Part shown: one piece after another, positions 41,752 through 64,000 of the stretch | How the letters are laid out: each line of letters starts with the position of its first letter | Numbering within the stretch: position 1 is the stretch's first letter | Virus record (IMG/VR): IMGVR_UViG_3300006793_000013 | Direction: 5' to 3' (one strand) | DNA from: a virus | Length of the DNA stretch: 64,000 nucleotides | The notes under the pieces: model-generated | Database searches by the model: none | Told to the model about the DNA's origin: nothing | What the model saw: the letters and a program-made list of their open reading frames with translations, nothing else | Made by a program: the position numbers and the translations under genes

Positions 41752-43812
41752 TCATTTTGTTGTTGCAATGAACACTCCATTCCAATCTTTAGGTAACTTT
41801 TGTGTTTTCATATATTCACAACGTTCAATCCACATAGTATAATATCCTTCCATCTTAGCATCAAAGTGTCTCATTAGTTTTTCACAAATCCATATTGCTT
41901 CATCAAACTTTTGTTTTTGATACAAATCATGCATTTCTTGATGATGGCGTTGTGCTGTACGCCATGCTGGTTTAGGATTGTCTAGTACTGTCCAAATACC
42001 AATACCAACTGTTTTACCTTTAACTGCTAGGTCGTCTACTTTTAAGTAGAAGAAGTCGTCTTTAGTTTGTTGATATGTTGCATCTCCTACTAGTAATAAG
42101 CAACCATATTCTTTACACTTAGATTCTATTCTTGCTGCTGTACTTACAGAGTCGCCAAGAACGTCATAAGAGTGCCTTGCGGTGCTACCCATTTCGCCAA
42201 GGTAACCAAGGCCAGTATTAATACCGGCACCCATACCAACGGGAGGACGTCCTTCATTTGTAATTTGTTCATTAAATTTCTCCACTGCCTTAAGCATATC
42301 TAATCCACATTGCACTGCGGTCTTTGGATGTTCTGGATCTTCAATTGGTGCATTGTGTACATGCATACTTGCATCACCAATGTACTTAATTACCATACCA
42401 TCGCTGTCTAATATAGGTTGTGTAATAGCATCCATATAGCCATTCATAATTTTGGTTAAGCCTTTCACGTCATCGCCAAATGATTCGCCCAAAGGTGTAA
42501 ACCCACGCAAGTCTGAAAATAGAATACTGACCTCTTTCTTCATACCGTCTTTGATAAGTGCAGGATTTTCTTGTAGCATACGTACTACTGTTGGTGATGC
42601 ATACCCTGCAAATTGCTTCTTAATCTTTTGTTTTTCAAAGAATTCTACTACAAAACGGTTAAATGTAGCATGGAAACCTACTGCTGTGCCTACTAGCAGT
42701 ATCCAGCTCACATCCCATAGCTGTAAGTGCCCTTTAAACAGCGTATAAGCGCCGTACAAGCACGTTGCGTACATAATAAGTACCAATGCACCCACTACGT
42801 AATATGGTGCTAAAACCGCCGCAATTATAAGAATAAGCCCAATTACGATACTAGCAGCATACTCTACAAATGTAGCATAATCAAAACGTACAATGTTATC
42901 GCCATTTACGATAGTCTGTAATGCTGTTGCAGTCATTACATAACTGTATTGTTCTCCGTTTGGAGTAGCAATAACTGGTGCAAGTCCTTCTGCTGTAATA
43001 CCAATAATTACAATTTTGCCTTCCATTCCCCAAAAGAAATCTTCTTCTGATGCACTGTATACATCAAAGTCTTTGTTCCAACGCAACCAAATTCTACCAT
43101 TTGGATCTGTTTGAATAGTTTGATACGCAGGCACACGCATAGCAATAATACCGCCCTCGCCTGCTTTAACTTGATAACTAGGATCACCTACAGCAACACG
43201 TATTGTTTCCATAGTAATACTTGGATATACTTCGTCACCTACACGCATTAGCAATGGTAAGCGTCTTACAACACCATCTATTTCAGGTGCAGTATTAATT
43301 ACTCCAACGCCTGCTGCGTTTTCACCTAGTAAAGGTATAGGACCTAACATGCCCGGCCATTCAAATAACCAAGGCATAGGATCACCTATTTTAGCAACAC
43401 CTCTTGGTACTGCATTTTTATTTGTTTGTGTTGTTCCTGTTTGTGCGATAACAACACCATTGTTTAGCAACATCTGTGCTAGTTCAGTATCTCCACCTAG
43501 TCTATCATTCTCAGAAAATAGGATAGGCATAACAATAACGCCAGCACCATGCGCTCTTAAGTTTTCAATAATACTTGCTAATACATCACGCTTCCATGGC
43601 CATTGTCCGTACTTTTCTATAGATGCTTCGTCTATTTCTAATATAGCAATGTCGTTGGATAGTGGTTCTACTGTGTCATAACTTTGAATAAGATCAAAAG
43701 ATTTGAGTCTTAAAGTCTGTTTTACATAGGGATCGTTGAACCCTAATATACTAATAACTGCTAAGGTTAGAAGTGCTGTAGACCAATGTGTTATAATCTT
43801 TGACAGTTTCAT
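41752..43812 (-). CDS. CHASE2-domain class III adenylate/guanylate cyclase
   Basis: CHASE2 (IDEASIEKYGQWPW.R, DGVVRRLPL), 3 TM helices, FSDLRGFT, KYIGDA, YDVLGDSVSTAARIE. Confidence 0.93.
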   Translation of the reverse strand: MKLSKIITHWSTALLTLAVISILGFNDPYVKQTLRLKSFDLIQSYDTVEPLSNDIAILEIDEASIEKYGQWPWKRDVLASIIENLRAHGAGVIVMPILFSENDRLGGDTELAQMLLNNGVVIAQTGTTQTNKNAVPRGVAKIGDPMPWLFEWPGMLGPIPLLGENAAGVGVINTAPEIDGVVRRLPLLMRVGDEVYPSITMETIRVAVGDPSYQVKAGEGGIIAMRVPAYQTIQTDPNGRIWLRWNKDFDVYSASEEDFFWGMEGKIVIIGITAEGLAPVIATPNGEQYSYVMTATALQTIVNGDNIVRFDYATFVEYAASIVIGLILIIAAVLAPYYVVGALVLIMYATCLYGAYTLFKGHLQLWDVSWILLVGTAVGFHATFNRFVVEFFEKQKIKKQFAGYASPTVVRMLQENPALIKDGMKKEVSILFSDLRGFTPLGESFGDDVKGLTKIMNGYMDAITQPILDSDGMVIKYIGDASMHVHNAPIEDPEHPKTAVQCGLDMLKAVEKFNEQITNEGRPPVGMGAGINTGLGYLGEMGSTARHSYDVLGDSVSTAARIESKCKEYGCLLLVGDATYQQTKDDFFYLKVDDLAVKGKTVGIGIWTVLDNPKPAWRTAQRHHQEMHDLYQKQKFDEAIWICEKLMRHFDAKMEGYYTMWIERCEYMKTQKLPKDWNGVFIATTK

Positions 43813-60427: not shown

Positions 60428-60673
60428 TTAGGCTCCTAGTGCAAAGTTAGGATCACAGGCTTGTTGCCAACGTTCGGCAATTGCTCTAGTGTGTTTACAT
60501 TTACCATGCATTGTCATACCCATACAATCACAAGTAAAGCCTTTCGATGTCCACTCAACAGTATAGTCATCACCACGACTACCTTTTACTGGCCACTGTG
60601 TGCCAACTGCCCAATGGTCTTTCATATCCATAAAGTCAGGCTTGAAGTATCTAGGTCCATATTTGCTTTTCAT
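60428..60673 (-). CDS. SWIM zinc-finger protein
   Basis: YTV...FTCDC.G....KCKH. Confidence 0.8.
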   Translation of the reverse strand: MKSKYGPRYFKPDFMDMKDHWAVGTQWPVKGSRGDDYTVEWTSKGFTCDCMGMTMHGKCKHTRAIAERWQQACDPNFALGA

Positions 60674-61332
60674 TATGGTAACTCCTTACTTGCAATAGTG
60701 TTTACAATCATATTACTATACTTCTCATTAGTACTCCAAGGAGAAATATGAAATGCTAATTGATCGTAATCCCATATATCTAATGCAATTTGACGTTTAC
60801 GCTCAATACGAAAGTTTTCATATGCATGGTGTGTATTAAGAATGTTAATAGCATCTTGTACACTAGCACATTTTGTAGGATAAGTCTTTACACCAAACTC
60901 TGCGTTTGGTAAGTCTAGAGGCTTCATCTGTGGTGTATCAGGATCCCATGTTCGTATACCAAAAAGATTGTTACCGTCTCTGGTAAACCTACTAGTACCC
61001 CAACCACTTTCAATACCGGCCATAGCAATAATAATAGAGCTAGGAACACGCTGATCACGTGGAGTTGTAAAGTTTATAAAGTCAACGCATTGTCCTACTG
61101 CGTCCATGAATGAGTTTGAATCTGTATACACGAAATCAGGTTCATGCATACCGAGGGCGATTGCCTCTTTTAAGAACTTGTTCTCAATTTTCTTTGTGTA
61201 GTCGCTTGTTACAAAACCATTTGGATTAAATGTACCAACACCAAATGCAAATGCTACAGCAGCTACCGAAATACCTGTGATAATTGCCTTACGCTTTATG
61301 CCTGTCCAATTCATTTTATGCCTCTGCTTCAT
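60673..61332 (-). CDS. Glucosaminidase (GH73, Bax-like)
   Basis: IAMAGIESGWGTSRF...NNLFGI, LNTHHAY..FR..R, WST..KY. Confidence 0.88.
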   Translation of the reverse strand: MKQRHKMNWTGIKRKAIITGISVAAVAFAFGVGTFNPNGFVTSDYTKKIENKFLKEAIALGMHEPDFVYTDSNSFMDAVGQCVDFINFTTPRDQRVPSSIIIAMAGIESGWGTSRFTRDGNNLFGIRTWDPDTPQMKPLDLPNAEFGVKTYPTKCASVQDAINILNTHHAYENFRIERKRQIALDIWDYDQLAFHISPWSTNEKYSNMIVNTIASKELP

Positions 61333-61422: not shown

Positions 61423-62046
61423 TTAGAAGTTTACGTTAAATGTTAACGCTATTTCTCTATCAACTGAATTCAAGTCTGAATCTAAATCTTGCATTAAAGC
61501 AACTTGTACAGATGCTTTATCGCTTACTGGAACTGCAACACCTAGTTCTGCATATGCGTCTGCTCTAGAAAAGTCAAACAAATCACCTTCTACTGATGAA
61601 ATGTCATATCCTAGTTCTGCATAAGGAACTACTAGTCCTGCATCAAATGCAGCACCAATTGATGGACTAATTCTTAACTCGTCTTTAGTAAAAGAATCGC
61701 CTACAGTATAGTGTACTTCTGGAGCAGCATAAAAGGTTACACGTGGTGCTTCACCTGTTACGGGGTCTGCTACAGCAGTTGTATAAAGTTTACCAACAGT
61801 AAAACGATAGTCATCGTTTACATCATCGTCAATAAACTCGACTTGGCCGTAAACAGTACCAAAGTCGTGCTTGATGCCATAAACGTTTGCTGTATCAGCA
61901 AAGTCATAACTAGCACCAGTGCCTGCAGATAAAGTAGTTTTATCTGATGTTATGTTAATGTTCATGCTGGTATCATCGAAGTTGTCAGCATAAGCAGTTG
62001 ATGCTAACGCCACAGCGAAAGCAAAAGATAGTATTAGTTTTTTCAT
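61423..62046 (-). CDS. Outer-membrane beta-barrel (porin-like) protein
   Basis: Signal peptide (AYA|D), alternating amphipathic strands, terminal ..LTFNVNF (BAM signal Phe). Confidence 0.7.
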   Translation of the reverse strand: MKKLILSFAFAVALASTAYADNFDDTSMNINITSDKTTLSAGTGASYDFADTANVYGIKHDFGTVYGQVEFIDDDVNDDYRFTVGKLYTTAVADPVTGEAPRVTFYAAPEVHYTVGDSFTKDELRISPSIGAAFDAGLVVPYAELGYDISSVEGDLFDFSRADAYAELGVAVPVSDKASVQVALMQDLDSDLNSVDREIALTFNVNF

Positions 62047-62142: not shown

Positions 62143-62721
62143 TTAAACTTCAGTGCCTTTGATGTCTTTAATAAAGGTGAATTTTTCTGTTTGGCTGCTT
62201 AGATATTCAATAACTTTCTCAGGTGTTGTTTCACCATAAGGGTCGCTATCGGCGCCATCGCAGTTTTTGCCTGGCTCTTCAAACCATGCTTCAACTACAC
62301 CGTCATTAATGACAGCCGCATATCGCCATGAACGTTGCCCAAAACCTAAATGCCGTTTATCGACTAGCATTCCCATCATTTGTGTAAACAGTGCATTGCC
62401 ATCTGGAATGACCTTTACTCTTTCTACACATTGGTCTTTAGCCCATTTGTTCATAACAAATGCGTCATTAACAGAAATGCAGTAAATTTCATCTACTCCC
62501 ATTTCTTTAATCTTGTTGTAATTCTCTTCAAATCCTGGTAGCTGGTATGTGCTACATGTTGGAGTGAACGCTCCTGGTAAGCTGAATAATACTACTCTCT
62601 TTCCAGCGAAGTAGTCGCTGCCGTTGACATCTTGCCAACGATAAGGGTTCGGTCCTTCAATGGATTCATCTCGGACTCTAGTTTTAAAAACCACGTTAGG
62701 TATTTGTACACCTTCTCTCAT
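62143..62721 (-). CDS. Peroxiredoxin (Prx5/AhpC type)
   Basis: FSLPGAFTPTCS, ISVNDAFVM, DGN..F, RSWRYA. Confidence 0.93.
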   Translation of the reverse strand: MREGVQIPNVVFKTRVRDESIEGPNPYRWQDVNGSDYFAGKRVVLFSLPGAFTPTCSTYQLPGFEENYNKIKEMGVDEIYCISVNDAFVMNKWAKDQCVERVKVIPDGNALFTQMMGMLVDKRHLGFGQRSWRYAAVINDGVVEAWFEEPGKNCDGADSDPYGETTPEKVIEYLSSQTEKFTFIKDIKGTEV

Positions 62722-62808: not shown

Positions 62809-63090
62809 TTAATAATATGGATTATTAAAGTTGGGGTCATCCATTCCGTCTACGCCTGTTACTTCTGGAATGTAATGTTTCAGCATGTTTTCTACACCCA
62901 TCTTAAGTGTTATTGTGCTACTTGCACAACCAGAACACGATCCTTGTAGTAAAACACTTACACGACCTGTTGACTGATCAAAGTCTTCAAACTTAATAAA
63001 GCCTCCGTGTTGCTCTACTGCCGGTTGAACTTGTTCATCAATTAAGGTATTGATTCTTTTTACTATTTCGTCGTATTCTTCTTTATTCAT
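62809..63090 (-). CDS. NifU C-terminal/NfuA-like Fe-S carrier
   Basis: VQPAV..HGG.I, LQGSCSGCASS..TLK.GVE. Confidence 0.92.
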   Translation of the reverse strand: MNKEEYDEIVKRINTLIDEQVQPAVEQHGGFIKFEDFDQSTGRVSVLLQGSCSGCASSTITLKMGVENMLKHYIPEVTGVDGMDDPNFNNPYY

Positions 63091-63111: not shown

Positions 63112-63185
63112 TGGCAGGCGAACAAGGAATCGAACCTCAAGCTACGGTTTTGGAGACCGCCGTGTTACCACTACACCATTCACCC
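63112..63185 (-). tRNA. tRNA-Trp(CCA)
   Basis: GGGTGAATGGTGTAG...GCGGT-CTCCAAA-ACCGT...GGTTCGATT...TTCGCCTGCCA; 74 nt. Confidence 0.95.
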
Positions 63186-63199
63186 TTTGTCAATAAAGG

Positions 63200-63362
63200 C
63201 GCAACTTTTCTGTTGCCAGGTAAGTTGCCAACCCCGTTACCTAGTTAACTAGGCTGCAAGAGCAAAATTATCGTTTGCGTCTATAAAGTTGCTTGATTTA
63301 CGGTCATCGCCTACCGGTAACTCCACGTTCTCTCATACATCAGTCGATCCTAGTTCGCCCCC
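63200..63362 (-). ncRNA. ssrA: Two-piece (permuted) tmRNA, coding piece; tag ANDNFALAA at 63249-63278 (3' end approximate)
   Basis: 5' GGGGGCGAACTAGGATCGAC; GCA AAC GAT AAT TTT GCT CTT GCA GCC TAG; 3' hairpin GCAACTT...AAGTTGC. Confidence 0.92.
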
Positions 63363-63506
63363 ATCATAAGCACACTTGCGAAGTCTTTTGTTATAACCAC
63401 GCTTAATCTTCTTACGTTCACCTGGTCTCCAATGAAGTAAATTTTTAGCCTTTTTGCTTAGAGCATCAAACTCATCGCCGCTAATCATTTTAATACGTGT
63501 CTTCAC
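63333..63506 (-). CDS. Small basic protein (57 aa) encoded mostly inside the tmRNA intervening sequence
   Basis: GGAGA SD (63511-63515), GTG 63506, MKTRIKMISGDEFDALSKKAKNLLHWRPGERKKIKRGYNKRLRKCAYDGGELGSTDV*. Confidence 0.7.
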   Translation of the reverse strand: MKTRIKMISGDEFDALSKKAKNLLHWRPGERKKIKRGYNKRLRKCAYDGGELGSTDV

Positions 63507-63526
63507 TGTATCTCCAAATGTGCTTA

Positions 63527-63588
63527 TGGTGGAGGCGCGGGGTACCGCCCCCCGGTCCTGTCTGTCGTTGATTGGCTTCAACGTTACA
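63527..63588 (-). ncRNA. ssrA: Two-piece tmRNA, acceptor piece (5' end approximate)
   Basis: ...GACAGGACCGGGGGGCGGTACCCCGCGCCTCCACCA; CGCCTCC pairs with GGGGGCG of coding piece including G3:U70; alpha-type GGCRGUA T-loop; lies upstream of the 5' piece. Confidence 0.92.
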
Positions 63589-63592
63589 TGTA

Positions 63593-63623
63593 TATTTATA
63601 CTACCATTTAATTGGTTTGTCAA
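63593..63623 (-). promoter_or_regulatory. Overlapping sigma70 (TTGACA-N17-TATAAA) and T4-late (TATAAATA) promoter for the tmRNA-tRNA-Trp unit
   Basis: TTGACA 63618-63623; TATAAATA 63593-63600. Confidence 0.75.
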
Positions 63624-63636
63624 CCTTTTTTTGAAA

Positions 63637-64000
63637 TTAATAAGGATTAATATCTAAGTACTTGCCCCATTCGCTGTAGTAATGGCGCATACCAACTTCA
63701 TCATGAATTGTTCCATTTTCATGTCTACCATGCAATATGTTACGTGCTTCTGTGCCTTCACGCATTGTGGTTCCTTGTCCTGCTACACCAATTAGGTCTT
63801 CGTGTAGGTTACGTCCAAACGGTCCCCATATGCTGTTGTGATGATTGATACGTGTGCGTCTTTCTTCTGGTGTGTCTTTGCGTAGTCCATATCCCCTAAA
63901 TTCAATAAGCACTTGATTACATCCTAATGGAGTAACACTATCTGAACGATAAGCACTACCACGTAGGTTAAAGTTGAAGCCTGGAAACAAGTCTACCATA
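63637..64000 (-). CDS. msmA: Rieske oxygenase alpha subunit, C-terminal part; MsmA (methanesulfonate monooxygenase)-like
   Basis: DLFPG.N.NLR...PLG.N.VLIEFRG.GL..DTPEER...HN.IWGPFGRNLHEDL.GV.GQG...HGR.EN.TIHDE.GMRHYY.EW matches my recollection of the MsmA C-terminus; 5' part outside window. Confidence 0.7.
   Translation of the reverse strand, partial: MVDLFPGFNFNLRGSAYRSDSVTPLGCNQVLIEFRGYGLRKDTPEERRTRINHHNSIWGPFGRNLHEDLIGVAGQGTTMREGTEARNILHGRHENGTIHDEVGMRHYYSEWGKYLDINPY

Follow-up and report, generated by a model that had tools for sequence, protein, structure and literature searches.

The permuted two-piece tmRNAs known from Caulobacter and other Alphaproteobacteria, with phage copies in the OM43 phage Melnitz and in pelagimyophages, are encoded in the order acceptor piece-CCA, intervening sequence (IVS), coding piece, and their described IVSs are short spacers. 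Two-piece tmRNAs are part of the literature on Melnitz/HTVC008M-like phages (PMC9004378). For inserts within an IVS, the tmRNA database paper of 2025 cites nothing beyond a tRNA-Ala gene or a repeat element (PMC11915505), and the literature searched yielded no account of a protein gene located in a tmRNA IVS. The window analyzed here, i.e. the whole 64,000-nt stretch of viral DNA from the IMG/VR record IMGVR_UViG_3300006793_000013, carries a tmRNA gene that shares with them the order of pieces, the tRNA-like domain, a tag with LAA at its end and the setting of a marine T4-like phage, but its IVS is occupied by a protein gene that is under selection and has its stop codon in the mature RNA.

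Several described systems resemble this arrangement in part. ArfA and BrfA are made from non-stop mRNAs and are controlled by trans-translation, tmRNA tagging leading to their degradation, which provides a precedent (PMC8012679). Like the protein of the window, they are small and basic, and their message loses its stop by RNA processing, as is predicted for that of the window, so that output should rise when trans-translation is limiting. However, the window protein has no sequence relation and no detectable fold relation to them, its stop is predicted to be lost through tRNA-type processing by RNase P, whereas theirs is lost through RNase III or a terminator, and most of its homologues have normal stops. 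Group I introns, including those of tmRNA genes that carry homing-endonuclease genes, likewise house ORFs in tolerant peripheral loops of an RNA that is removed, and these ORFs show variable presence and spread between divergent hosts of the same RNA gene. Nevertheless, such introns are spliced whereas the IVS would be removed by cleavage, and exchange of the IVS contents more likely involves homologous recombination through the tmRNA flanks. Furthermore, the window ORF encodes only 48 residues before the cut, with no endonuclease domain (Pfam finds no LAGLIDADG, GIY-YIG, HNH or His-Cys domain in it and none that is significant in 68 relatives). In the tRNA punctuation of mitochondria, ORFs also end exactly at the 5' cut of a tRNA-like structure, but there the stop is completed after cleavage, whereas A-addition in the window (GAU|AAA) gives none and the system is a bacterial/phage one endowed with trans-translation.

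The minus strand of the window carries a full-length permuted alpha-type tmRNA gene at 63198-63640 (Table 1). Two Rfam covariance models match it over their full length, RF01849 with 118.7 bits (cut-off 50) and RF04321 with 116.2 bits (cut-off 47), and ARAGORN locates a tag reading frame (63278-63249) that encodes ANDNFALAA followed by TAG. The gene is permuted, the 3' strand of the acceptor stem and the CCA (63529-63527) being upstream of the 5' strand that begins with the G at 63362. The tmRNA and the tRNA-Trp that follows it are probably on one transcript. The promoter-like site of the precursor was not listed by the promoter scan because the rule used requires a T at the last -10 position. 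Its TATAAA doubles as a T4-late-type TATAAATA (63600-63593), and this overlap between a sigma-70-like promoter and a T4-late-type TATAAATA suggests expression both early and late. No separate promoter precedes the ORF of the IVS, the best candidate being a weak 9/12 match at 63516-63487. The other genes near the tmRNA, all on the same strand, encode a NifU-like protein (62809-63090), a peroxiredoxin (62143-62721), an outer-membrane beta-barrel-like protein (61423-62046) and a glucosaminidase (60673-61332). A 686-aa protein with an adenylate-cyclase domain (41752-43812, minus strand) is 70% identical to its counterpart in Melnitz and 49% identical to that of HTVC008M; by homology, the phage is a Melnitz/HTVC008M-like marine myophage.

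Table 1. Features of the tmRNA locus in the window and other ORF cassettes carried by tmRNA IVSs of the same stem family
Feature	Position	Strand	Basis
Promoter-like site of the tmRNA precursor: TTGACA (63623-63618), 17-nt spacer, TATAAA (63600-63595)	63593..63623	-	read by eye
tmRNA acceptor piece (T arm, 3' acceptor strand, CCA ending at 63527)	63527..63587	-	RF04321 and RF01849 alignments; ARAGORN
IVS, 164 nt, predicted to be removed on maturation; hairpin with gene cassette in its loop	63363..63526	-	sequence, Rfam, fold
IVS closing helix, 5' strand	63515..63526	-	fold, covariation
Shine-Dalgarno (SD) sequence GGAGA, 4 nt before GTG; partly paired in the extended helix (pairing probability 0.3-0.8)	63511..63515	-	sequence, fold
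48 sense codons of the phrog_16066-family protein inside the IVS, conserved core complete	63363..63506	-	sequence, homology, profile
IVS closing helix, 3' strand; doubles as codons for ORF residues K-C-A-Y	63367..63378	-	sequence, fold, covariation
Read-through part of the ORF within the mature tmRNA: 9 codons and TGA (63335-63333)	63333..63362	-	sequence
tmRNA coding piece, holds the tag reading frame	63198..63362	-	ARAGORN; Rfam
tRNA-Trp (CCA), directly downstream of the tmRNA	63112..63185	-	ARAGORN; Rfam
Cassette in tmRNA IVS: 29-aa basic peptide	L140:1796-1882		
Cassette in tmRNA IVS: 37-aa transmembrane peptide	L136:3223-3333		
Cassette in tmRNA IVS: 41-aa ORF	L220:125-247		
Cassette in tmRNA IVS: 68-aa DUF2061-like membrane protein (below Pfam cut-off)	L141:6570-6773		
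Cassette in tmRNA IVS: 388-nt IVS with two ORFs	L193:2448-2684		

Since the Rfam alignments fix both the CCA end at 63527 and the mature 5' G at 63362, the limits of the IVS follow directly from them. The initial annotation, which was made from the sequence without any database search, had proposed a 164-nt IVS closed by a 12-bp helix with one G.U (63526-63515 paired with 63378-67), and all these coordinates hold. In the MFE fold, the closing helix reaches 3 bp further, into the SD, and the extended helix stacks on the acceptor stem, which generates a nearly continuous long helix in the precursor. The folding of the IVS has a z of -3.3 relative to shuffled sequences. Across 68 unique related IVSs, compensatory changes are found at helix pairs 8-10, and the IVSs of L109 and L231 display double compensations. 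Pair 4 is an A.C mismatch in 42 of these 68 IVSs, mostly short ones devoid of ORF, and is G-C in variants with longer inserts. The TTATGAT located just before the cut is also conserved in ORF-less IVSs.

The ORF carried by the loop starts with a GTG at 63506 and comprises 57 codons. The predicted RNase P cut (63363|63362) falls exactly between two codons (GAT|GGG), and the part of the ORF before it comprises 48 sense codons without any stop. Every detail given by the initial annotation for this ORF (the GGAGA, the GTG, the 57 codons, the stop within the mature tmRNA and the cut on a codon boundary that leaves 48 of them) proved correct. The same 164-nt IVS with its ORF is present in ten viral contigs, with 79-98% amino-acid identity (tblastn, E down to 3e-35), and purine-rich SD-like boxes precede all embedded homologues. 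The conserved core of the protein ends just before the cut and the read-through tails vary freely: they are short in most relatives but exceed 30 codons in L003, and neither their length nor their sequence is conserved. By these comparisons the ORF is a genuine gene, far beyond what chance would produce. Such loci are easily overlooked: ARAGORN missed the permuted tmRNAs with an ORF in the IVS in L230, L231, L040, L047, L058 and L061, which were found by Rfam or nhmmer profiles, and the IVS ORF itself will be annotated as an ordinary or over-extended CDS, as exemplified by a 96-aa ORF in the window (63333-63623). Routine annotation will under-count tmRNAs with IVS-borne ORFs.

Diverged IVS-borne lineages, with dS ranging from about 0.9 to saturated, exhibit dN/dS values of 0.06-0.25, and the comparison shows the window ORF to be under purifying selection. 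Close copies have few substitutions and are too similar for a clear estimate (pairwise dN/dS 0.2-2), although nearly all the changes in the C-terminal half of the protein are synonymous. Start codons alternate between GTG and ATG, and the length differences between lineages are mostly whole codons, the frame and the SD being kept through indels. A single frame-changing event, a 1-nt deletion, is found at the very 3' end in the MMG-tail type, whose frame nevertheless also remains open up to the cut. The stops or indels breaking the ORF and the lack of purifying selection, which had been named at the outset as arguments against the proposal, are therefore not what the IVS-borne copies display.

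The window protein matches the family phrog_16066 at E 2.6e-5, and its relatives do so at 2e-9 to 2.7e-9 (profile HMM). A profile derived from alignment A1 and searched against 1.8 billion representatives retrieved 1152 clusters at E<=1e-3, including 255 at E<=1e-10, nearly all of 45-90 aa. The conserved core seen in alignments A1 and A2 includes an N-terminal G-D-E-Y/F-D-A-L (4th position x), a W..PG turn and a basic K-K-I-K-R-x-Y-N-K-R-x-R helix; all of its columns, invariant or near-invariant, lie within the 48 codons that precede the cut. The AlphaFold (AF2) model of the peptide has a pLDDT of 88 and three small helices (10-16, 20-23 and 30-47), and the fold of the family, as modelled, is a small three-helix unit. 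One may guess that the protein binds nucleic acid or the ribosome by its basic C-terminal helix.

Searches for characterized relatives returned little. Pfam contains no family for the window protein, and 68 family members give only scattered single-member matches above E 0.001, none of them to an Arf family. The profile search of the PDB with A2 gave nothing significant, the best match being a 19-residue stretch of Rv1738 from M. tuberculosis (E 0.55). Rv1738 has been likened to ribosome hibernation factors. Foldseek found no match in the PDB, BFVD returned only an uncharacterized protein of the Mycobacterium phage Adawi (E 0.26), and the ESM Atlas yielded hypothetical viral clusters only. A helix-turn-helix fold was considered and not retained, as the VIA-align matches (Z <= 3.9, mostly to sigma region 4 or LuxR-type helix-turn-helix domains) are too weak to name a fold. 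Among cultured phages, tblastn gave no match with the window peptide and a single one with P0011, in an unannotated stretch of the SAR116 phage HMO-2011. The tails of some phrog_16066 proteins (L104/L094) and the unrelated 41-aa IVS ORF (L220:125-247; L193) have in common a motif H-R-(L/V)-H-(T/S)-x-K-Y-E-D-L-C. In L104, the codons of this motif fold into an 8-bp hairpin immediately ahead of the stop; this tail may be a shuffled module.

Comparison of related tmRNAs indicates that the loop of the IVS hairpin is an exchangeable slot. Among 112 phage tmRNAs that share the 3' stem and the tmRNA start, approximately two thirds have an IVS of 28-39 nt and the rest carry inserts, IVS lengths ranging from 28 to 388 nt among relatives with the same stem. 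Three contigs (L016-18) have a tmRNA 99-100% identical to that of the window and flanks 76-90% identical, but their IVS has only 45 nt and no ORF. Conversely, the cassette is 88-98% identical across phages that share just 58-87% identity in their tmRNA pieces and have flanking genes that cannot be aligned. These exchanges could result from homologous recombination through the conserved tmRNA flanks between co-infecting phages. The same IVS stem family harbours five other types of cassettes with SD-led ORFs (Table 1), each of which has its own stop 1-37 nt before the cut. The phrog_16066 family is enriched in the slot, 12 of the 108 unique family ORFs of the viral sample being located in a tmRNA IVS.

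None of these embedded family members has a stop before the cut. This holds for the window type, the MMG-tail type (L040/47/58/61/98), L109, L230 and L231, as well as for L037 and L232, whose IVSs belong to two types with ends unrelated in sequence and whose tags differ. The same layout recurs upstream of tRNAs. In L107, a family member reads through an entire tRNA-Gly. In L108, another one takes up the whole 164-nt spacer that separates tRNA-Glu from tRNA-Thr, and its stop is supplied by the D-loop of tRNA-Thr. This last member belongs to an array of 11 tRNAs (L108:225-3504) whose spacers are filled with SD-led ORFs of 60-208 aa; five other spacer ORFs stop 1-14 nt before the next tRNA and only the phrog_16066 member enters it. 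Overall, an own stop is found in 0 of the 6 embedded arrangements of the family (four tmRNA IVS types and two tRNA spacers) versus 5 of the 5 other cassette types (Fisher P ~0.002 by the authors' own arithmetic, a value that is valid only if the arrangements are independent). The family tree (43 columns) has unresolved forks that fit one capture as well as several, and is compatible with a single origin of the embedded lineages. In the sample studied, stop-lessness thus goes with the phrog_16066 family, and its presence before other tmRNAs and before tRNAs implies that RNA processing should render the message of its embedded members stop-less. The position of the cut on a codon boundary, pointed out by the initial annotation, stands for the window and is found in 5 of the 6 arrangements, but it is not a general rule, since the MMG-tail lineage passes the cut in a different frame; as the detection of read-through tails is biased, the codon-boundary pattern is not leaned on here. 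Just before the tRNA-Gly of L107, the last codons of the ORF (L107:205-224) are GCCTCCACCA, a sequence that is also found at the 3' end of the tmRNA acceptor piece. This GCCTCCACCA may be the scar of a recombination that joined tRNA-flanked and tmRNA-borne copies, or may be due to chance.

Most of the family is found in another context, 95 of the 108 unique ORFs (~88%) being free-standing genes with ordinary stops and often with acidic tails. More distant homologues (L011-L014) are also free-standing genes, of 50-60 codons. Free-standing members are located after a DNA polymerase gene, between those of the portal and of a minor head protein, or near baseplate, DnaB, primase and terminase genes, and this spread of sites has the distribution of a mobile accessory gene. 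As these sites are unrelated to translation, they indicate no general link of the family to translation, and the predominance of normal stops implies that the protein works without a non-stop message. The possibility raised at the outset that homologues are mostly elsewhere, with no link to ssrA, is thus borne out for the bulk of the family, but no IVS-borne copy has lost the stop-less run. The free-standing genes were also examined for terminators or hairpins of the ArfA/BrfA kind ahead of their stop; only 6 of 95 gave candidates, all weak, and the idea was rejected.

The preferred explanation combines these observations with the textbook tRNA-type processing of permuted tmRNAs, the cleavage sites being inferred from this processing and from tmRNA homology. 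Together with the sequence, such processing implies that maturation leaves a non-stop message. The lifecycle of the IVS gene could be pictured in this way. The slot in the hairpin loop holds an SD-led gene for a very basic, three-helix phrog_16066 protein of ~48 residues. Devoid of its own promoter and stop, this gene would be transcribed only within the tmRNA precursor, from a strong promoter of early/late type. RNase P and 3' trimming would then free both tmRNA pieces and turn the IVS into a stop-less message of 164 nt, in which a 20-nt leader precedes the 48 sense codons and the paired ends partly mask the SD. Ribosomes that translate the excised IVS would stall at its 3' end and have to be rescued, so that the product would be tagged with ANDNFALAA and degraded as long as trans-translation has spare capacity. 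The TGA inside the tmRNA would be reached only by ribosomes that outrun processing. Protein yield would therefore report a race between translation, tmRNA maturation and rescue capacity. Translation, excision, stalling and tagging are all inferred here from the layout of the locus.

That this stop-less layout is a selected regulatory design, in which maturation produces a non-stop message in parallel to ArfA and BrfA, is given an even chance. It retains part of the self-sensing module proposed by the initial annotation. All IVS-borne copies continue without a stop across the RNase P site, this layout recurs before tRNAs (L107, L108), and the other cassettes keep their stops; against the proposal, ~88% of the family has normal stops. 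Two further considerations weigh against selection for the layout. An RNA-level constraint near the cut limits where stops can arise, although other cassettes do have a TAG or TGA in this region, the TAG at the stem position that corresponds to the Lys codon AAG of the window (63377-63375), and co-transcriptional translation could reach the TGA before processing takes place.

This second consideration is central to the main rival, a tight packing of genes, which is possible though rather less than probable. According to it, the IVS is merely a well-transcribed slot, co-transcriptional translation ends at the TGA in the tmRNA and yields a 57-residue product, and the missing stop has no regulatory meaning. 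Many unrelated small ORFs indeed occupy the same slot, phage tRNA arrays place ORFs within 1-14 nt of the next tRNA, the family functions with normal stops elsewhere, and contigs from RNA libraries bridge the whole precursor. Two such contigs join the acceptor piece, the IVS and the coding piece, one of them, of 293 nt, being identical to the window, and others carry short-IVS variants. The bridging contigs, together with a further one that ends exactly at 63362, the predicted mature 5' end, also give hints in favour of the preferred explanation; all these hints are weak because they are contigs only, with possible DNA carry-over, and parts that they leave uncovered are uninformative. However, each of the five other cassette types ends with a stop of its own, as do the other spacer ORFs, while embedded family members never do. 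Read-through tails are conserved neither in length nor in sequence and exceed 30 codons in L003. Moreover, no stop has arisen before the cut across a divergence that saturates dS, though single substitutions could create one.

Two readings go beyond the selected layout by assigning a role to the protein. The broader one, which is unlikely, would make phrog_16066 a new phage-borne class of factors that bind the ribosome or the rescue pathway; the copies embedded in tmRNA and tRNA precursors would constitute a self-sensing circuit, in which every round of maturation frees a stop-less message whose product survives only when trans-translation is saturated, and by which the phage would measure and correct rescue capacity during infection. 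The other, put forward by the initial annotation and quite unlikely, holds that the peptide is a backup rescue factor like ArfA, BrfA or ArfT, or another ribosome-binding factor, that accumulates only upon saturation of trans-translation. Its size class, its basic C-terminal helix and its conserved acidic N-terminal motif, which could bind a partner, agree with this, as do the non-stop layout that embedded copies share with ArfA and BrfA and the location of the gene inside that of a ribosome-rescue RNA. Such factors are mutually unrelated in sequence, so that the lack of homology does not exclude this reading (PMC8012679). Nevertheless, by sequence the peptide is none of ArfA, BrfA and ArfT, as the window protein has no Pfam match (ArfA is PF03889) and the family only scattered single-member matches above E 0.001. 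No solved structure is significantly related, the weak fold neighbours are helix-turn-helix domains and not Arf proteins, and most family members, which have stops and lie between replication or structural genes, show no link to translation.

It is very unlikely that the basic protein acts like an intron-encoded maturase, binding its own precursor or tRNA-like RNAs and aiding their folding or processing. The location of the gene in a tolerant loop of a structured RNA, as for intron ORFs, the strong enrichment of the family in tmRNA and tRNA precursors and the basic helix would fit such a role, but ORF-less IVSs are the majority, so that processing does not need the protein, and most family members are at loci with no tRNA or tmRNA nearby. 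Finally, an untranslated relic or selfish insert, in which the ORF would be a decaying passenger of a conserved RNA, was already disfavoured and is most improbable: the few substitutions and pairwise dN/dS of 0.2-2 between close copies and the horizontal spread of the cassette would fit it, but not the low dN/dS at saturated dS between diverged copies, the frame and SD that survive indels, the alternation of GTG and ATG starts or the almost exclusively synonymous change in the C-terminal half.

Spacers of stable RNAs are treated as throw-away sequence and are skipped by annotation pipelines. In the present case, genuine protein genes can be swapped in and out of the spacer of a ribosome-rescue RNA, and one widespread family appears, from the arrangements compared, to have been repeatedly positioned in such a way that tRNA-type processing would remove its stop. 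If the selected layout works as proposed above, it would be a third, independent instance of the principle exemplified by ArfA and BrfA, i.e. an output gated by trans-translation, achieved in this case via RNase P and inside the tmRNA gene itself. The locus also offers a handle on an orphan family of phage proteins with over 1000 clusters and on the reasons for the presence of tmRNA in marine phages.
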